This document shows, one piece after another, positions 1 through 34,700 of a DNA stretch of 38,189 nucleotides. Made by a program: the position numbers and the translations under genes. Under the pieces are notes generated by a model, which was not told where the DNA came from, ran no database searches, and saw nothing but the letters and a program-made list of their open reading frames with translations. Numbering within the stretch: the first letter of the stretch is position 1; each line of letters begins with the position of its first letter. Source of the stretch: Basidioascus undulatus (Eukaryota); contig JTLS01000043.1 in the NCBI GenBank assembly GCA_000826855.1, positions 1 through 38,189 of the forward strand, written 5' to 3'.

Positions 1-296
1 GCGGGGTTTCTGCCGGGCCCCATTCCAACATCCATCAGCCTCCGCGCCCCCGGCCCCCCTTCCGCTCACCCAATACCATCCCATCAACTCACCGCACTCC
101 TCCTCGCCCGCTTGTTCGGTGTGAGTCCATCGTTCCCGTCCTCCAGCTCTGCCGCCGCGCGCTTGAGCGCGTCTCCGCCGAGGGAGACCGCCCTGCGCGA
201 CTTCTTGACCGAGTTTTCCTTTTCCTGGGCCTGGTCTTTGGACAGCGTCGATGAGGACTGCGGCGTGGCCGTTGTCGAGCGCCGGCGAGCCGACAT
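1..296 (-). CDS. 5' part (exon 1 plus start of exon 2) of a probable kinetochore scaffold protein, Spc105/Spc7/KNL1 family; gene runs off the window edge
   Basis: ATG at 296. Exon 296-93 (68 codons) reads MSARRRSTT...QEKENSVKKSRRAVSLGG...LTPNKRARRSA. GTGAGT donor at 92, GCTGAT branch site and CAG acceptor at 12-10, then KPR at 9-1. The KEN...RRAxS...TPxKRARRSxxPR pattern matches my recollection of the sequence just before the SILK motif in basidiomycete Spc105/Spc7. The SILK/RVSF motifs lie outside the window, so the family call is inference. Confidence 0.55.
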
Positions 297-825: not shown

Positions 826-3082
826 TTACACTCCTGACGTGGCTTGGTAGACTTCGACACTGCGGGCGAAGGTGTGAACATGAGGTTCCGTGTCCCACCC
901 TCCTTCAAGCATGCAGCTCCCCACCTATTGATCACCCATCTGCGCATTCTCCCCAGTATTAGCCCAAAAACTACTACTGCCCATTTTTAGAGTCAGAAAC
1001 GTACACGGCATTGTGGAAGTTCGCCGGATCCTGAACGATCGCTTGGCAAGCAGCCATGCCTTGCCCGCCTGGACACGTCAGCCCCGATTGCCCAGGGGAA
1101 TTATACTGTTGTGGCCTGGCATGAGCTCCAATAGTCCTTTCAGAAGGTTTAAGTTGAGCAACACCCACCGTGTTTCCCGCCCAGTCGCCTAAAGAAGGGT
1201 CAGCTGCAACGCAGGACATGCGGGTGCCTCGGAGGGAGACGTACCACAGAGTGTGATGTCTGATCGTGGCAGAGCTGTCTTAGAGAATAGCCCAGGAGCG
1301 TATTCTGACCTGAAACTCACCGAAAATAAGTCGGTGGTCGTAGAAATGGCCCGCACTGCAGGCCGAGCTATCGAAGTACGCGACCGGTGCACCCCATGTC
1401 GCCGGGTTGGGGGCTCCGGCAGTGATATCTTTGCAAAGGTCAATATCAGTAAGGTACGTAATGAAATGACAAGATAAAGAGACGAACCGGCTGGGATGCT
1501 CCCGCTGCTGAAGAACCATACTTTAATTCCCTCCGGCGTCTATCCCCTCCTCCCTTCCAATCAGCTTGACCCCCTCTCTCTTCCGAGCTCAAGGAAACGA
1601 TCACCCATTCATGAGCGTACACTCCCCCACCCGCAGCATTGAAACCCCCCCCGGCACTCGCAGCCGCTGGGACTTCCTTTAGATCATGCATCCGTATCAG
1701 CGGCTTGTGGTTGCGAAACCCAAAGGCAAACGTGCGCACATAGCTGCACCCCGTGTTCCCTGCGGGTCCCAGAGAGTTGCAGTCGCTATTCCATAGGAAG
1801 GTCCCGGTAGCCCCGACGCCCCCGTAGTGCGCGCATCTGAGAAATTTGAGTGAGAGGTGTGAGTCGGGATTGGCCGTGGGTGGCGAGCTTGAAAGCGTAC
1901 CCCGCGTTCGCGTGGATGGCGATGCGGTTGAAGGCGAAGCCATTCACCGCTATGCCAGGTACATAAGGTTTACTTATGCTCAAGGAGAGGACTGTGCTTA
2001 CTCTCTTTCGCGCCTCTGTTTATCAGCCATGCTCCTTCCGCTACGAAAACTACAGAGGCAACGCACCGATAACGTCGATTTCTCCTGCGTTTGGCCAGTT
2101 CTGGAAGATCCCCTCTCTTTAGATTAGCCCTGGCGAGTAATTAAGTGAACCACGAACCGGTCCAAAAGACCACCAGGCAGGCCAGACAGCTGGAACATGA
2201 CGGCATCAGCCTACGCATTTTGGATGCTTAAAGACTACGCACAGCAGCCATAGGGCATCGAGACCGCGTCCAGTATGAAGAGTCCCCCTGGATTGTCCTC
2301 CGTTACATAAGGGTTGGGTTTAAGAGAAGATTAGGCCTGGCAGCCTACCGGTGTAGGAGCGCAGGCTTTCAATCCGGACACTCCACAGGCATCGAGATCA
2401 GACGACGAGCGACACGGAAGAATGTTAAAATGACTACCTTGGTCTTCCCTGTCCAAGAGCCGTCGTGTTCACATCGTCTACTTTCATGAATGCCCTGCCA
2501 TACACAACGAGCTCGAGCGGGTCAGCACCATGACGATCATGAAGCGATATGGCAGTCAGGTCGCGTACCTTCCGTCCGCCCCAATGCCTGCTAGGCCTTG
2601 GGCAAAGGCCTCCGGCTGAGATAAATACCTTAGAATTCAGGGGATCAATTCAGTGTTCAGAGTTTGACCGTCAGAGATCAGAAATCGATACTCACTGCAC
2701 TGTGCCATGTGTCGGATCTGGACCGGAGTAGAACGACCATCCTCTGTTAGACCGCCCAGATCAACTGAGTTGCCCTTTATCTAATAGTCTAAGAGCTCCG
2801 AGAACTTAACTGAAAGAAGTTCGACCCCTTATACGCCTGAACAAGCGTGTACGGGTCCTTCGAACCAGCAGAGGACCCAATCGTCCCACTCTGCCGCCTG
2901 GGGTCTTCCTCCGTTCCTGGAGTAGGCGTAGCGGAAGTCTCTGGTGGAAGGGCAATGACGAGTGGGGCCGGCGGGTCGACCGGCGAAAGCCTCAGCCTGT
3001 CCCGCCCGCGCCCGCCGCGGCGCTGTGCGCCTGCAAAGCCGTCCAAGGCGAGGAGGAGTGCGATTGATGAGTAGAGGCGCAT
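826..3082 (-). CDS. Secreted glycoside hydrolase family 16 endo-1,3(4)-beta-glucanase (fungal Lam16A-like), about 19 exons
   Basis: Hand-spliced: signal peptide MRLYSSIALLLALDGFAGA; YTLVQAYKGSNFF; WSFYSGPDPTHG; GRPSVRIES; GGLFILDAVSMPYGC; VWPAWWSFGP|NWPNAGEIDVI(E) catalytic motif at about 2067-2100; GGFNAAGGGVYAHEW; GIKVWFF; PNPATWGAPVAYF; DITLCGDWAG; NAVWVINSVEVYQ; TAA at 828-826. ATG at 3082. Confidence 0.93.
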
Positions 3083-10468: not shown

Positions 10469-12026
10469 CGTTTCTAGAATTGGATGGGATAAGGAAGGCA
10501 ATGAGGTACGAGGTCAGTGAGGTACAGGAACATGATGCACTCGAGTGAGAACGCTGATAAAGCTAGCTCGGCCAAGGATGGTGTGCTTGATTACTTCGGC
10601 ATACGGATCCGATTCTGGAACTTGGCCGAATCGAATAGGGGAGTCGGTACGGTGATACTGTAAGTCGCAATGGCAGACGGGGGAGCGAAACAAAGCGAAG
10701 ATGAGGCGAGAGGGCAAGCGAAGCACGCAACCGCCGTGTCTTTGACAGCCGCTGATCCTGCAGTCATCTTGCTGTCGCGAACGCTTTCAAAAAGTTGGTA
10801 TTCCGCCTAGGGGAACATGTATATAGATATAGCGAAGGAATTTACTGATAGAAATAAAAAAAACCAATAACTTCATTTGGAAACCACCCGCTTGTTCTTG
10901 CTGGGGTGGATCAGTGCGGGCTGGCGGACTGCGTTCCATGCTGTCCTGCCATTTTCAGAGCTACGTTGCGCTGCAGTTGCTGGAAAATCCCATGAGCGAG
11001 AAATTTCTTTTGCCCATATACTGGGGAAGGGACACCAATTTATACCCTTCCGAATGTGCGAGAGGAGAGTGAAACTGCATGCAAGAAGTCTCGAAAGGAC
11101 CTGGATTACCTAGGTCGAAACAACTGTTTTATCTAATATTCGCAGCTGCTAGTACTCTATACCTACGTATTAGAGAGGAATAGTCAAAAGGCAGCAGAAG
11201 TTCGGAAAGCCCAAGATTCGATGTCGGCTCAAACTACTCTCTTCAGAGTTTGGTGCAACCTTGCTCACTCGTCCCGCACCAGGAGTTGTGAACACTCGGT
11301 CTTCGGAGCGCCTCATGTCTTCCAAGCGGTTCTATATCCAGGTGTTCCAGCTTGACTTCTGAACCGAGGGGAATGTGCAGGAAAGACAAGCTTGTGCGTG
11401 GCACCGTCGCTCTACCAACGGCAACGCAAGGCAGCACGTACTTCGCGCATCGAGACGTTGTCTAGAAGGTCGATTGAGTCCGTATTTGAGAAAATAAAAA
11501 GTACTAGATTTTTTGTCGAGTAGAACTGGTTGACCGGCAGTGGGAATGCTTGGCAGTATCGCATGCTGTGAGCCGTATACTATGGCCGCAGTCAGTCTCT
11601 ACACCTTGCAATTGAAGAATGTCAAGACACACGCAGCGTACAGTATTGGCGAAATAAGCCCTCAGACGGAACAAGGTATCAACCCTGTTCTATTGGAGCT
11701 TTTTCAATCTGCAGAATTGGTGCAACACCTCGGTGAGTGCAAATTGACTGCCGGCTGCCGGCTGTCCGACCTGCCGCTGAATTGCATCTCCCGCTCGAGA
11801 GCTCTGCCAGAAGTCCTTGGAAAATGTCACAGATTCTTACAAGTAACATAACATGAGAGGAAATATCAAGAGTGTGCAGTCCTTGGAAGCGAGTAATAGC
11901 TCAAAAAGCCTGCATTAAACCCATGGTCTGCGTGTACAAAGAACAACACATCTGGCAAAACCGCAGCATTCCACAGTTTTCCCAAAAATATGAACAACAT
12001 AAGCACTAGAGATTACTATGATATCC

Positions 12027-12740
12027 TTAGAGGGATGCCGCGATCGCGCCGACAAGGACAGCCGCGAGCGCAGCGACCGATGAGCCGCTGAAGCCCGCGG
12101 CGCCATTGTTGCCCGTGGTGCTGGACGTGGAAGAGGGGGCCGCGGAGGTACCGGATGGGGAGGAAGAAGCGCCGGAGGAGGTGGACGAAGGGCTGCCGGT
12201 GGTGGACGAGGCGCCGGTGGCATTGCACTGGGCCTGCGAGGAAAAGGGGGTGCGTGAGATGAGATCAGGGGATAGACGTGTGTGGTGGGGCCGGAAAAAG
12301 GAGTGAGATGAGGGAACAGGGGGTTGGGATGAAAGGGTAGGGAAGAGGTACGAACCTGCTGGAGGGCCAGACCGGTCTGCTGGTCCGCCTCAGTGCAGTT
12401 GGCCTGGAGACACGCCCCCGTGGCAGACTGGAACGACTCGGACGTGCAGAAGCAGGAGATGTCGAGACTTTTCCGCGCCCGATGTGCACACATCAGCCCA
12501 CTCCACCCAGCTCGAAATGAGATGAGAAGACGCACAGGCTCGCGCAGCCCCCCTCGGCGATACCTTGTTGCGTGCAGTTAAGGACCTGTGCGGGATCAGG
12601 AAGAGACGTGAGATAAGATCCTGGTGACATCAGAAAGCTCTCCAGCGTACACATTCCGGGATGCTCGACACGTCCGGGAGCTGGGCGACGGCCAGAAGAG
12701 GGAGTGCAGCGAGCGCGAGAGAGGCCAGGCGGAACTGCAT
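12027..12740 (-). CDS. Small secreted, probably GPI-anchored CFEM-domain protein (4 exons)
   Basis: Signal peptide MQFRLASLALAALPLLAVA. Eight-Cys CFEM: IPEC|VLNCTQQGIAEGGCASL|LDISCFCTSESFQSATGACLQANCTEADQQTGLALQQ|AQC. Ser/Thr-rich stalk, then NNGA plus hydrophobic tail SVAALAAVLVGAIAASL*, with TAA at 12029-12027. Confidence 0.92.
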
Positions 12741-14540: not shown

Positions 14541-16189
14541 GGCGAGTGGTGCAAGAGGTGAAGGCGGGGTAGAGCTCGAAGAAATGAGAAGGGAAGCGGT
14601 CGATCGATGAAGTAACTCGCTAAAGTGCTTGGAGGGTGGCGATGATTCTGAATTTGCTTTGTCAATTTGAAGGGGCCCTTTGAGAAAATTAGAAGTGAGC
14701 AAATGAGGACGTGAACAACGGGCGGGCGAACAACGTGGCAAGTTCTCTACCGCGTTTGCCCCGACTGCGCCGTATTTCGACGGCATTTTCGACGGCAGTG
14801 ACGTTTTTTGTGTGGTCGTGGCGGTCGCGACGGTCCCGTGTTTTTGTTGACAAGATGAGTAACGGCATATAGTTACACTACTATCCCTTCAAGCTCATTG
14901 CAGTTTCGCGGCAACCGGCCGCATTGGCGGCCGTTGGTCCCTCTCCGCCTCGTATCAAACAATGCGGGCTCTCAGTGCAGGTTAATACTTTGGAAGTATG
15001 AACTTCAGAGCACAATGCACATGCATGTATCCCAGTGTTGCCAAGCATTTCGTTGCCCGCGATCTCCACGTCGCTCCACCGTGGGAAGTCGGGCTGCTGA
15101 AGTTCTGCCGCCAGAACTGTCGACTAGGTGTGTATTTTAATACCACGAGCAGCAGAGATTTTACATTAATGGGGCGCTGCCGGGAGCGAAAGTTCCGTTG
15201 ATGGTCAATGAGAAATTCTGCCGCCGAGGCCACTGAAAGTTCTGCTGCTTGGCTGCAGGAAAAAAATGGGACTTTCATACGCCAGATGCTGTGAATGGGC
15301 GTAGGAAAGCCTTCAGGATGAGCCAGTTCTCCATAGCATTTCAGGCTCAGGATTTCTGCTTTCTGCAAAACTTCCAAGGCCCATCTGCAAACTTCTCTCG
15401 GATCAGCACACATATTACAGGTTGTCACAGTGCTATAGAATGTTGTCACTCTTCGGTCGCAAATGCTCATAGCAGTTCCCCAGCTCTCCGCCCGCACCCG
15501 CACAGCTAGGAACCCAAGCCTCCCGCCCGCCGCAGGGCGGCGGGTCGACTTGCGCGTCGCCGCCTGAGCCGGAGCCGGAGTCTGCAAGGCAATGCAAGCG
15601 AGTCAATGATAAACACAGAAGAAAAATATAAGGAAAACACCTTCACGGGAAGGGAACATCGTAATTCTTGAGGTTTCATGAGGGGTTTTCTTTTGTGCAT
15701 GGCCGGCAATGAAGGGCCGCTCTGTGCCGTTGTTGGCTGGCAGAGCGAAGCTTTATGCGAAACGCGGTCGACGAGGCAGGAAAGGACAGGATGGCTCATA
15801 TCCAGGCATACGCTCTCAATTGAATTGATCTATCTCTTTAAACTCTTTAAACTTACTGTGAATTTCCTCAAAGAAGTGGCATATGGTGATGGGTTGCTGC
15901 CTCGGTATCGGGAACGGTCTTCTGGCTGACGCAATGGCACCGCAACGCTAGCAGCTCCCCCTCGCTGTACATGCAACGTTAAATACCATTGAATTTTCCA
16001 GAATCACTTATTGCTGCTTTTGCAGCGAGTCATAGTTATCAAGAACGTCTTCCAGTTTACGTGGGAAAGGCTGAATTGCACGAGACTTACAACGCGGTCG
16101 CGTCAAGCTCGTCTTGCCCATCACCGCGCCTTACTCTCTCCGGCCTCAGGCCACTCACACCAAACTAGTAACACTATCGAGGCTGTTCG

Positions 16190-19100
16190 ATGGACACGCG
16201 CCTCGATTCCGAGTTCTCCTCGTTCGCGGAGATACTGCAGCACCTGCGCACCGGCGGCGCAGACGCGCTCGAGCTGCCCGCGCTCTTTGCCCGCGCGTGC
16301 GACGCCAAGCTCGACGAGCCCGAGGACCTCGCCGATGTCGAGCGCGAGGCGTGGGAGCTTGAGCGGAATACTTGGACGCTTGTGCAGGCGCTGTACGAGT
16401 ACGTCTGGCGCTGGGGAGATCGGCAACGCGCCGGGAGGGGAACGCTCATCTCCGTGCCTGCAGGGAGCGATTGAGCGAAGATTACGACGGGCCTACACCC
16501 GACCAGATGCTCGCGGAGAACCCTTACGCCCCGCCGCTGGCGATAGTCCAATCTCTGATCGCGTCAGACAAATCCCTAACCGAGCTCAACGTGCGTCTTC
16601 TCGCTCCCCTTCCCGGATTCTTGCGTCTTTACTCAGAACCACACCTCTTTGCAGACCATCCGTCACTGGCTGCATTCCATTCCCACGCCCGTCTACCCCG
16701 TCGAAGTCCGCAAGGGCTTCCACACGTACACCAAAAACCGTCTCAAGCACGCCGCCCGGTCCGGGCAGGCGCCCCCGCGCGGCTTGGTTGGGACCTTGGA
16801 CCCCGACGCGACGGTCCGGACGGGAGGGCGGCTGGATGCGGACGATGCGGTGCGTAGTGTGGAGCTATGCTTGGGATTGTCGGACGCGTGGGGAGAAGGT
16901 CGGTGGGGCTGATGGGGAGGAGGCACCGGGACAGGCATACGACAAACCGTTCCTGCGCACGCTGTACGAGTATGTCCGCTTGGGGCGGATGGACCTCGCG
17001 CTCGACGTCTGCCGCACTTCCGATCAATCCTGGCGCGCTGCGACTCTCCGCGGCGGCCAGCTGTGGAACGACCCGTCCCTCAGTACGCCACATTCTCCCC
17101 GGCAGTCTCCTCTGGTCCATGTAACGCGCGGGCTGTCAATTGAGCGTGACCTATTCCTCCTCCGTTTCGCGTAGTTAACGATGACGAAGCCGCCATGGAC
17201 CTCTCCACCTCCGATCTTCCCTCTTCCACATCTGGGAACCCATCTCGGCAGCTGTGGAAGTCTATGTGCCGCAAGCTGTCTACGAACGTGCGTGCTTCAT
17301 ACCTTGCGTCCACGCCCTTTCCTTCACTTTCTTACGAATCTATATTATTGGCTCAAGCCCAACCTCGACCCGTATGAGCGCGCCTTGTACGGCGCCCTCT
17401 CCGGAGCGCTCGCGCCTGTGCTGCCCGTCTGCGCGACGTGGGAGGACCACCTTTGGGCGCGCGTCAACGCGCTCATGGAGCGTCGCGTGGATGAGAGCCT
17501 GCACGACGTCGGCGGGTGGTGGATCGAGCGTGAATTGGAGCGCGCGAACGCGCTGGCGCTGGATGAGCCGGGGGTGCCGGAAGGCCTGGAAGCTGTGTTT
17601 GAGCAGATTCGGAAGGTGGACGGCGCGGTCGGGTACGTCCAACTCCATGCCTTCTATTGTTTGGCGTTCCGTATTTACGCAATCCTTTTCCTGTGCCGAA
17701 CACAGCGCCGCCGCCCAAAACCCCTACCACGTCGCGCAGCAGGACCTGATCCTCTCCCGGCCCGCGCACCTCATCTCCTTCTTCGCCGCACAACTTCCCT
17801 CCCTGCCGAGCAGCGTGTCGCCCGAGCTCCTCGCGCAGCTCCTCCGCTTCTTCTCGCATCTCATCCTCTTCCTCCGAGCCCTCGGCCGCGACGAGGACGT
17901 CCCCTCGGGCTCCGCGGACGTGATCATCGAGGCGTACGTGCGCACGCTCGAACTGCGCGGGGAGAGCAGGGAGCTCGTCGCGCTGTATGCGGGGTGCTTG
18001 GGCGAGGACGCGGGTGGGGAGAGCTATGCGCGGTTCTTGCACTGTGCGTCGAGTTCGTTTCGCTTGGCCACCAGCGAGTGGGGCATTTTGCGGGCGCTGA
18101 CATCAGATGCGGACGCTGCTTTTCTCGTGACCTCGGCAGCTCTCGACCCCCAGCTCGACATTGACACGCGCCGCGCAGCGCTGCTGCAGACGTCGGAGCA
18201 CGGCCTCGACCTCGCGCGCGTCGCGAGCCGCACTGTCGAGCTCACGCTGGCCGACACGTTCATGGTATGTCCCCCACCTCTTCGCTTTTCACAAGTTCAT
18301 TGCTCATTTCGCTGACCCGCTCAATCCAACCAGTCCATGCCCGACTTCGGCCAGACCGCCGTTTCGCTTACGGACTTTTCGACCGCGCTCTCGCAGCGCG
18401 AAGTCGTCCTCATCCGCTCACTCGAGTGGCTCACATTCGCCAAAGAGACGTACCCCGACGCGCTGGGGCAGACCAACGGTCTCATGCGGTTCTTCCTTTG
18501 TGCGTGTCTCTCGTCTCAGTCCTGATGACCATCCTGTCGTCTCAATCAGGCGCGCGACTGACGCTTGACTTTGGCTGTTGTTCAGCGTCCGGCAAGATCC
18601 ATGCTTCTTCTTCCCTTCTCTTCTCGCTCCCCGGCGACCTGCTTTCCGCCCAGCCGCCACGACCTGCAGGCACCGAGGACGAGTCAGACCAGGCGATGGA
18701 GTACGCGCACTACCGCGCATTCTTCGACGTCCTCCAGCTGCATTCGCAGTGGTCCGAGCTCTGGAGCCGCCAACCGTCCGAGGCGCGCGGCGCGGCCGAG
18801 ATGCACTCCTGGGTAACGGCTGTGCGGGTGCGTGCTTCGTGATGAACGTCATGAACGTCAGAGGTCGCATGCGCGTCAAGCTGACCGATCATATGCGCCT
18901 TTCGGACGGCTTGGTTTTGTTTTGGTAGGAGTCAACAAAGCAAGTGTACAAGGCTTCGCTCGACCTCCTCCAGTCCGAGTGGCTCAAGATTGAGATCGTT
19001 TCCGACACGCTGGATGGTCAGTGCTCGAACCTCGCTGAAGTAATGACAGACAGTGCTGACGGTTCGTAAACCCGCTCGGTTTCAGGCGAGCGCCGCGCGG

Positions 19101-31755: not shown

Positions 31756-34700
31756 CTACGACTTGTCCTTGCTCCGGAACGGCGAGCCGAACTTGCTCCC
31801 AGGCGACTTGCTGAACGTGCTCGCGTTGTCGGGGGCCGTCTCGCTCGTGGAGACGCGAGCCAGGGTGGCCGACCAGTCGAGGTGCAGCGACAGCAAGCCC
31901 TGACCCTCGTGCAGCTCGGCTTCGACGTCGACTGTGTGTGGCAGCGAACAGTCAGTGTCTCGGGACCGTGAGCGCGCATCACAGCATAACCAGAACGTAC
32001 GAGATGTTACGCCCTGTTCAGGGTGGATGTAGCGCCCGATCGGGACCTCGACCTCGCCGAGCTCCTTGTCGGACAGCAACGTCCTGCTGTCAAAAAGCTC
32101 GACCTTAAAGGTGGGGCGGTCGGGCGATGTGCGCAGCGTGAACGTCTCGTCCCTACACCGTTGCGACGTGATCTGGTAAGCGGCCGCCCAGAAGCTGACA
32201 TGTGAAACAGTCGCACCAGGCCGGCTCGTGTGTCTTGCCGAGCGTATTAGTTTGAAACTTGTTCTTGCCGTATCGCACGAGCGCGTAAGGCTGTGCGGTA
32301 ACAGCATGTTAACGCCTCAGAACTGCAGCGAAGATCGATCTACCGGCAAAAGGACGCACCTTCGGCAGGTCGTGGTGGTGCACGCCCTTGAGATCCTTTG
32401 CGGATTTGACGGTGACCTTGAGCAGGCCAGGCTCGACAGGGGACGCAGCGCCGTCGACCGCCTGGCCGTTAGCGAGCTGAGTGCCAGGCAAGTCGGCGGG
32501 CACGGCGCTCTCGTCGCTGACGACGCTACCGTCCTTCCTCTTCTTCACAAAGCCAAAGACGCCGCCGACACCGCGCCCGACGGAGCCGACGACGTGCACG
32601 CTGCCCTTGCCGAGGTGGCCCGCGCCGTGAACGACGCCCTTCCCGGCGCCAATACCGATGCCGCCGACCTGGGTGAGCGCGCGGCCGGCGGTCGAGAAGG
32701 TCGACGTGCGCGAGCGCGTCTTAACGATGAAGCTCGGGCGGAAGAGAAGCGATATCCGGACCTCGCCCTTGTCGCCATGCTTGGGGTCCTTCAGCTGCAG
32801 CACGCGCTCCTCAGCCTGCAGCGGCTCGAGATCGGCGATGTCGATCTGCGCGGTACCGAGCTTGTCCGCCTTGCCCGCAAGCTCCCAGTCGAAGACCTCG
32901 AGGCTCAAGTTCGCGGCGGCGCGAGATGGCTGAAGTTTTGGGATCAGCAACGCTGCCCGATGAGTTTCCCAAGCAAAAAAAATTAAAAAGGACGTACCAC
33001 GGGCGTCTCGAACCATTCGTCCCAAGTCTGCGAGCGGAAGAGAGTGAGCAGCGCCACTTAATGCCCACACAAAAAGACGCGCCGGAGTGAGCGTCTTCTT
33101 CTTGGTCTCGCTCTTGTAGATCTTGTCGCCATTCAAGGTGAAGACTACGTAGGGGTCGGATTTGCCTATGCGAAGAGAAGGGTGAATTATGAGCGCCGCA
33201 GTCACGCAGAGTGTAGACTGAGAAGATGGCATACCAGAGCGGTCCGCGGCACGAAGGCCCTTGGCGTCGATGAGATCCACACGGAGGTTGCCCTGGTCTG
33301 CAGTCGCATTCTCCTAGGTCAGCAGCTGGTCAGAGGAAAGGGTTAGAAAGTCCAAGCGACGCACTATTCACGCTCTCGCGAGGCTCGAGTTTAATCGGCA
33401 CCGGAACGTAGCGCGCCTCGAGCTCCACCGTGCTTAACAACTCCGACTGAGTTGCGTTCTGCAGCACGAAAGTCCATCAGGGAAACATACCTCTCGTGCT
33501 CGCCGTCCTCGTCGCTCAAGTTGAACACCTCCGGCTTGTTCTGCAGCGTCAGGCCCAAGACGTATCAGTCCTTCTGCCAATCGCTTTCCACTACCGCTTT
33601 GAGCGTTGGCAAAGCAGAGACCAACCCACCAGGCACCGTTCCAAGAACTCCTTGACGTCCATAGCCGTCTCCGCAAAGACGTCCTCCTTCTCGTCCGCGT
33701 CGCCCTCGTTGAAGCGGATGCGGATCTGGCTGAACGGCAGCTCGCGGATGAACGCCTCGCCGACCTGGTCGAATGTGACCTTGTGCGAGCGCGCCTTCTC
33801 GGTCGAGAACGAAGGCCAGGACGAGTCGTCGATGAGGACCTCGAGACGCGCATCCTTCTTGTCGAGCTGGCCAGAGCGCACGTCGATGACGAGCAGGCCC
33901 GACTCTGACACACGCACAGAAAGTCAGTTTGGGACGCTGGAGAGTGCGATCGTGAGAGAACTCAAGACGCACCAGCCTCAAGCAGCTCATCGTGCGACAG
34001 CTCGACACCGTCGTCATCTTCCTCCCCCTCTTCCTCCTCGTCGAAATCGTCGCTGTTGGCCGTCCCAGTGCCTGAGCGGGTCGACCGCGTCGGGGAAGTG
34101 GGCGTGGGCGTCTGGGCGTCCGCCTGGGACGCAGCGGTGTGGGCGGTCCCCATAGTCGAAGCGGTGTCGACGCTAGCGGACGACGCGGCGGCGGCCTCGT
34201 TGCGCTGGACCTTCTGGATCGCCTGGTTGACCTCGTTCTCGGGCTCGTCAAACTTGAGGTTCTTGAGCTTGAGCGCGGGCACGAACTCGGCCTCGAACAC
34301 GACGTTGCCCTTGTACGAGCCGTCGCGCGCGAAGCGCAGCGGCTGGTCGCGGTCCGACTTGCCCGTCGACTCGTACGGCGCGTTCTTGTCGCCCGTCTCC
34401 TTCAGCAGATCGTAGACCTTGAGCTCCGTGTACCCGAGCGTGCGGTCCTGGATAAGCGTGGTCAGACAAGTTGGTGCAGCTGGAGGGAATGCATGCGCAC
34501 CTTCGTCAGGTTCTGGTAATCCATGCACTCGAGCACGAGCGTCTGAAGTCAGGAGCGTCAGCATCGGTTCGACAGCTGGAGCGTTTCTCGCAGTCGCACC
34601 TCGCGAGGGGAGTGAACGGGAGCGTAGAGGATCTCGTCCCACTCGGGGTTGAGGTCTGAACCGCAGTGACAAATGAGTATCGACAGCGCACGCAACGTTG

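Follow-up and report, generated by a model that had tools for sequence, protein, structure and literature searches.

Does an exon of three nucleotides supply a catalytic residue in a fungal glucanase gene? This question is raised by a 38,189-nucleotide (nt) stretch of DNA from Basidioascus undulatus (contig JTLS01000043.1 of assembly GCA_000826855.1, positions 1 to 38,189; the whole stretch is called the window below), whose minus strand carries a gene of the GH16 laminarinase type. In GH16 enzymes, the first Glu of the active-site motif is the nucleophile and the second Glu is the acid/base residue. Two classes of this motif, ExDxxE and ExDxE, have been described (PMC6827312, excerpted text). 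The gene in the window encodes the first Glu and the Asp of E-x-D-x-x-E in its exon 8, and the second Glu is present only when a predicted 3-nt exon, AGA, is spliced in. We consider it likely that AGA, predicted from the genomic sequence, is a constitutive exon that supplies this second catalytic Glu. The elements of the site are as follows.

2067..2100 (-): exon 8, 34 nt, encoding NWPNAGEIDVI plus G, the first base of the Glu codon
2005..2066 (-): upstream intron, 62 nt, with donor GTGCGT and acceptor aaAG
2002..2004 (-): predicted 3-nt exon AGA, whose AG would fill positions 2-3 of the Glu codon (G+AG) and whose final A would be the first base of the Thr codon (A+CG)
1950..2001 (-): downstream intron, 52 nt, with donor GTAAGC and acceptor catAG ending at 1950, without a canonical CTRAY
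1901..1949 (-): exon 10, 49 nt, in which CG finishes the Thr codon and is followed by VNGFAFNRIAIHANA
2022..2027 (-): branch-site-like GCTGAT; the distance from its branch A (2023) to the acceptor G (2005) is 18 nt
2014..2017 (-): two decoy AGs, 7 and 9 nt past the branch A, which would yield a 14-nt exon (stop) or a 12-nt exon (in frame, adding GAK)

Exon 8 ends at 2067 with GGA GAA ATC GAC GTT ATC G and is followed by the donor GTGCGT from 2066; exon 10 begins at 1949 with CGGTGAAT, which reads CG GTG AAT. Between them, aaAG, AGA and GTAAGC are consecutive (AG at 2006-2005, AGA at 2004-2002, GTAAGC at 2001-1996). These exon ends and the AAAG-AGA-GTAAGC string had been reported in an initial annotation of the window together with a GCTGAT upstream of the micro-exon; re-reading of the minus strand returned all coordinates unchanged and located GCTGAT at 2027-2022. 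The two products that it had described were also reproduced from our gene model. Inclusion of AGA gives EIDVIETVN and introns of 62 and 52 nt, whereas the direct join of 2067 to 1949 keeps the frame, gives EIDVIAVN and leaves a single intron of 117 nt. The skipped form EIDVIAVN matches neither ExDxxE nor ExDxE. In a tandem AGAGAG at 2001-2006 (-), three AG acceptor candidates overlap, which lie 18, 20 and 22 nt past the branch A.

The gene around this site was modelled from coordinates.

826..3082 (-): GH16 laminarinase-like gene, 19 exons and 18 introns, coding sequence (CDS) of 1146 nt, 381 amino acids (aa)

The CDS opens with the ATG at 3082, closes with the TAA at 828-826 and has no internal stop, and every intron border is GT-AG. 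Its exons measure 3, 15, 15, 20, 32, 32, 34, 34, 45, 48, 49, 52, 57, 60, 72, 97, 101, 108 and 272 nt, and the small exons of 15, 15 and 20 nt count as support for one of 3 nt. Apart from the two that flank the micro-exon, the introns (n=16) range from 53 to 74 nt; the 52-nt downstream intron is the shortest in the gene, 1 nt under this range. The N-terminus of the predicted product bears a hydrophobic, signal-peptide-like segment. Judged by its sequence, the window carries an intact, secreted-type fungal GH16 beta-1,3(4)-glucanase-like gene.

Homology was searched with single exons, taken as contiguous window DNA, and the spliced model was then aligned by script. When the longest conserved exon (35 aa) was compared with 1.84 billion representative proteins, four matches were obtained (best expectation value, E, 1.6e-05), and the best exon match had 59% identity over 32 residues. 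Among the four is P0003, a complete protein of 356 aa. The spliced model aligns with P0003 over 297 residues at 36% identity (E 7e-54), and the alignment of the motif is ungapped, with GEIDVIETVNG of the model opposite GEIDIIEGVNN. P0003 in turn matches the solved GH16 chains 3wdt (a beta-1,3-1,4-glucanase; 1.2e-56), 5jvv (6.7e-55) and 2cl2 ('putative laminarinase'; 5.8e-50), the last of which we take to be Phanerochaete Lam16A. A search with P0003 gave 628 relatives at E <=0.001, and the precomputed label PF26113 stands on all of the best 120 of these 628. The closest proteins found are Agaricomycete GH16 proteins with 41-47% identity. Judged by these relatives, the gene is that of a fungus, probably a basidiomycete.

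Several other queries gave nothing. Exon 1 (90 aa) had no match in a set of 5.8 billion proteins; the 35-aa exon lengthened into flanking intron codons (46 aa) had no words in common with any candidate; and Pfam searches returned 0 families, both for four single exons and, with hmmscan on a local copy, for P0003 despite its precomputed label PF26113. A profile hidden Markov model (HMM) was built from an alignment of 31 family members, and the model with AGA scored 395.6 bits against it. By whole-domain sequence similarity, in the P0003 alignment and in this score, the predicted product belongs to GH16, and the gene is laminarinase-like. Another of the matches to the 35-aa exon, P0001 (891 aa), is made up of a GH16 fragment repeated in tandem in four near-identical copies and is probably an assembly or prediction artefact.

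The second Glu is invariant among the relatives compared. Of 123 relatives in the protein sample, two are fragments that fall short of the motif, and GEIDxxE is present in all 121 that cover the site, followed by G in 114, N in 4 and Q in 3. Related DNA was sampled as 80 metagenome loci from a family-wide scan, for which the peptide patterns left the motif out; GEIDxxE was found in 80 of 80, and the residue following the Glu there was G, A, Q or N. The model with AGA matches 43 of the 44 invariant columns of the 31-protein alignment; the one mismatch, Ala in place of Thr, lies in another part of the protein.

To enumerate the ways in which the two exon ends could be joined, all GT or GC donors were combined with all AG acceptors around them; an internal exon was optional and limited to one of <=45 nt, and introns had to be >=35 nt. 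Of the 133 splice paths obtained, 42 are in frame without a stop. Only the path through AGA (2004-2002) with the donor GTAAGC yields ExDxxE and then x-V-N without an insertion or deletion. If the AG at 20 or 22 nt from the branch A were used instead, the result would be a frame-breaking 1-nt exon or no exon. That a micro-exon completes ExDxxE in this gene had been proposed in the initial annotation, and we infer the same: it is the sole indel-free path, and it brings the intron lengths back to normal. The scores of the products against the family HMM were as follows.

3-nt exon (2004-2002): 395.6 bits
12-nt exon 2004-1993: 387.8 bits
12-nt exon 2013-2002: 386.7 bits
micro-exon skipped: 385.7 bits
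14-nt exon, truncated product: 180.8 bits

The 14-nt exon (2015-2002, with the AACAG acceptor) leads to EARKRR and a stop, as had been stated before. The 12-nt exon 2013-2002, which would use the AG at 2015-2014 and stays in frame, had been overlooked. If it were used instead, the product would read EIDVIGAKETVN, with IGAKETVN at the junction and the Glu three residues later than in the family. This exon shares the strong GTAAGC donor, would leave introns of 53 and 52 nt, and has an acceptor AG that comes sooner after the branch site. However, that AG lies 9 nt past the branch A, where no other intron of the gene uses a distance of less than 11 nt, and it falls within an 8-base-pair (bp) stem that is described below. 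The insertion would also disrupt the ExDxxE spacing, which is constant across all 121 proteins and all 80 loci, and the product scores 8.9 bits under the 3-nt model. Use of the 12-nt exon is thus quite improbable.

It is also conceivable that AGA is skipped as a rule, that the 117 nt are removed as a single intron and that the EIDVIAVN protein is an inactive, glucan-binding GH16-like protein. The direct join stays in frame, the skipped form still reaches 385.7 bits, and the gene has its strongest donor at the upstream intron and its weakest acceptor at the micro-exon. On the other hand, an intron of 117 nt would be an outlier against 53-74 nt, and the Glu that would be lost is the one found in every protein and locus sampled. 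Besides the nucleophile Glu and the Asp, the protein retains 42 further invariant columns, which is consistent with a working enzyme. The frequency of such a site by chance was estimated by permuting the interior of the 117-nt interval with its ends kept (n=200,000). A 3-nt exon that restores the Glu, followed by a donor no weaker than GTAAGC and flanked on either side by an intron of >=45 nt, arose in just 165 of 200,000 shuffles, and laxer donor thresholds in the same test gave 1,182 and 2,478 of 200,000. Across the 38-kilobase (kb) window, AG-NNN followed by a donor as good as GTAAGC occurs 5 and 7 times on the two strands, and no internal AG-NNN-GT with an intron-only donor score of >=3.0 was found in the other introns of the GH16 gene. 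We therefore regard regular skipping as improbable.

The same estimate bears on the idea that the locus is a decaying or unexpressed pseudogene in which AG-AGA-GT is a coincidence. No close ortholog came out of the exon searches, where the best match was the 59% over 32 residues given above, and this would suit a gene in decay. Against this, 19 of 19 exons are in frame with GT-AG borders, 43 of 44 invariant residues are retained, and the chance estimate stands at 165 of 200,000. A pseudogene is the least probable of the readings that we considered.

The splice signals of the gene suggest how a constitutive 3-nt exon could be included. The site has an AG before and a GT after the exon, flanking introns of normal size, and a frame and homology that are restored by inclusion, as expected of an ultra-short internal exon; its weak point is the low acceptor scores. 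The upstream donor GTGCGT scores 10.0, the best in the gene, and the donor GTAAGC of the micro-exon scores 5.2, inside the range of the others (2.1-9.5). A CTRAY motif is present in 11 other introns at 11-27 nt from the 3' end, mostly 16-23, and here the distance is 18 nt. AGs located 7-14 nt past the branch A are bypassed in introns 2, 6, 11 and 16, so that bypassing the AGs at 7 and 9 nt at the present site would be in character for this gene. A rule by which the first AG >=10 nt after the branch point is used was rejected for the GH16 gene, since introns 2, 6, 11 and 16 violate it.

In the constitutive case, the messenger RNA (mRNA) for the active enzyme would join 2067 to 2004-2002 and then to 1949, reading EIDVIETVN. 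Each of the flanking introns (62 and 52 nt) would be recognized separately by intron definition, as in a fungus with introns of 50-75 nt. With each short intron defined in this way, the length of the exon would not be limiting and exon definition would be unneeded. The acceptor at 2006-2005 would be chosen 18 nt past GCTGAT, a distance usual in the gene, and the two nearer AGs would be bypassed. Only 3 nt separate this acceptor from the next donor, and for this reason splicing probably removes the two introns sequentially.

A local structure may contribute to the choice of this acceptor. The upstream intron contains a perfect 8-bp inverted repeat.

2052..2059 (-): 5' arm of the inverted repeat, GCCTCTGT
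2012..2019 (-): 3' arm of the inverted repeat, ACAGAGGC, spanning both decoy AGs

Both predicted structures, the minimum-energy and the centroid fold, contain the 8-bp stem. Shuffling produced a stem of >=8 bp in 45 of 5,000 cases, and among the 18 introns there is one more with such a stem. It may be that this stem masks the competing AGs and steers the choice to 2006-2005. As the region overall has a z-score of 0.16, the stem is a lead rather than a finding, and a special RNA structure across 2075-1940 as a whole was rejected on that value. The sole other intron with an 8-bp perfect inverted repeat is intron 2 (2495-2568, -), which bypasses an AG 10 nt after CTGAC.

Several observations weigh against the constitutive 3-nt exon. 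Its acceptor is purine-rich and scores -1.4, below all 16 others (2.9-9.7), and the downstream acceptor, at 1.6, is also under that range, in a comparison biased by a matrix that was trained on the same 16 acceptors and inflates their scores. The downstream intron is without CTRAY, as are five other introns of the gene. Position alone does not favour 2006-2005, because the distances of the AGs at 2004-2003 and 2002-2001 are likewise usual for this gene. In addition, Thr directly after the Glu was seen in 0 of 121 proteins and 0 of 80 loci, the motif is encoded contiguously, without an intron, in 80 of 80 related loci, and the closest relatives found are 41-47% identical. A scan of metagenome contigs with a pattern of the whole architecture (W-P, G-E-I-D, a split Glu codon, a 42-72-nt intron and AG-ARN-GT) gave 0 matches; the pattern recovers the window's own site once and matches 0 of 100 shuffles.

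The comparative results limit the exon to a lineage. An alignment of orthologous genes for a conserved AG-NNN-GT had been suggested, and the arrangement was not seen among the relatives compared, which are distant (about 40-47% identity at best), with 0 pattern matches and the motif contiguous in all 80 loci. At least 14 of these 80 loci have intron-like breaks elsewhere and still an uninterrupted motif; by tblastn, only 1-3 such breaks were counted per related genomic locus, which is a lower bound. Since no intron lies at the motif in 80 of 80 related loci, the micro-exon is not general to the GH16 family. Both introns that flank the predicted exon are missing from every relative compared, and the exon is lineage-specific on these alignments, which does not make it false.

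A further proposal of the initial annotation was that splicing switches between an active enzyme and a dead form. In a regulated switch, inclusion of AGA would vary with conditions to give an active glucanase and a dead glucan-binding isoform. Skipping is frame-neutral, and the weak acceptor is accompanied by several competing AGs. A condition-dependent microexon has also been reported in the fungal regulator Xlr2 of Trichoderma virens (PMC11121469, abstract), which speaks for a switch. However, frame neutrality comes by chance with any 3-nt exon, and no unusual RNA structure spans the region (z-score 0.16). Exon skipping is also the rarest form of alternative splicing in short-intron fungi, which argues against a switch. 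Taken together, the switch is unsupported, and we hold it to be very improbable. Hardly more probable, and no more so than the 12-nt exon, is an incomplete, condition-dependent inclusion of AGA whose ratio would be set by the weak purine-rich acceptor, the competing AGs and the 8-bp stem hiding two of them. If this were true, one gene would secrete an active beta-1,3-glucanase and a dead glucan-binding form, for example for shielding or sensing cell-wall glucan.

The GH16 gene is strongly fragmented, with 18 introns per 1146-nt CDS, in comparison with open frames of about 1 kb in the neighbouring Nup84/107 gene. An introner-like origin of the 18 introns was rejected (mean identity 0.54 vs 0.51 in shuffled introns; best pair 0.68 vs a shuffled maximum of 0.62). 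The other genes noted in the window are the following.

1-296 (-): another gene, beginning about 530 nt downstream of the GH16 stop, whose ATG is near 296 and whose first donor, GTGAGT, is near 90; its N-terminus is basic and Ser/Arg/Lys-rich
11915-12577 (-): one open frame, which matches a CFEM domain (E 2e-05)
15993-18842 (+): Nup84/Nup107 (PF04121), a few-intron nuclear-pore gene in three adjoining open frames (E 2e-11, 8.8e-18 and 3.8e-22)
32309-33313 (-): one open frame, with a match to C2 (E 6.6e-12)

The CFEM domain is fungal, in keeping with DNA from the nuclear genome of a fungus.

Because omission of AGA keeps the frame, an annotation error at this site would be silent. If the micro-exon is missed, the predicted protein resembles a normal GH16 protein without its acid/base residue, and carbohydrate-active enzyme (CAZyme) catalogues and 'pseudo-enzyme' calls would then be wrong. 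The case offers a clean test for micro-exon-aware annotation, in that a frame-neutral 3-nt exon is visible only via the family alignment. It would also show how finely introns can divide a catalytic motif within a single fungal lineage whose relatives have the motif uninterrupted. A literature search found no example of a GH16 micro-exon, and the 3-nt exon that had been cited for Phanerochaete Lam16A was not found in a full-text literature search and is unconfirmed. The mechanism is not new, because exons of 1-3 nt and micro-exons in catalytic motifs have already been documented in fungi.

Comparison with known systems places the predicted exon among these cases. Like 2cl2 and Paecilomyces 3wdt, the product predicted with AGA has the GEIDxxE strand with the flanking WPAxW and NWP motifs and belongs to the same family by sequence. 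Unlike the GH16 relatives found, to which its identity is only 36-47%, it has Thr after the Glu and a motif split by introns, and its activity is a prediction. Xlr2 of T. virens is similar in being a case of a fungal microexon whose inclusion alters the capability of the protein, with the difference that two Xlr2 mRNAs were observed under two conditions (PMC11121469, abstract) and the GH16 micro-exon is a predicted one. Among cytochrome P450 genes, CYP621A of Fusarium has been described with a 1-nt exon in a conserved motif, and CYP5141A1 of Phanerochaete with an exon of 8 nt in its AGHETT I-helix motif (PMC12940212, excerpted text). Those exons belong to another enzyme family and are needed for the frame, and the Fusarium exon has reads in SRA, whereas omission of AGA is frame-neutral; the likeness is that a tiny exon in the middle of an invariant motif is needed for that motif and was revealed by manual curation with a family alignment. 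The closest parallel in size is Coprinopsis cinerea, in which a long-read annotation contains 27 such 3-nt exons, spread over 26 genes, and in which 1,165 gene models have an internal exon no longer than 15 nt (PMC12230235, excerpted text). The C. cinerea exons have full-length transcript support, and the excerpted text of that report names no GH16 gene or catalytic residue, whereas the exon described here is predicted. The C. cinerea exons and the predicted one are alike in lying inside a basidiomycete-type gene between short introns; exons of this size are missed by gene predictors and have been called a hallmark of complex gene models.

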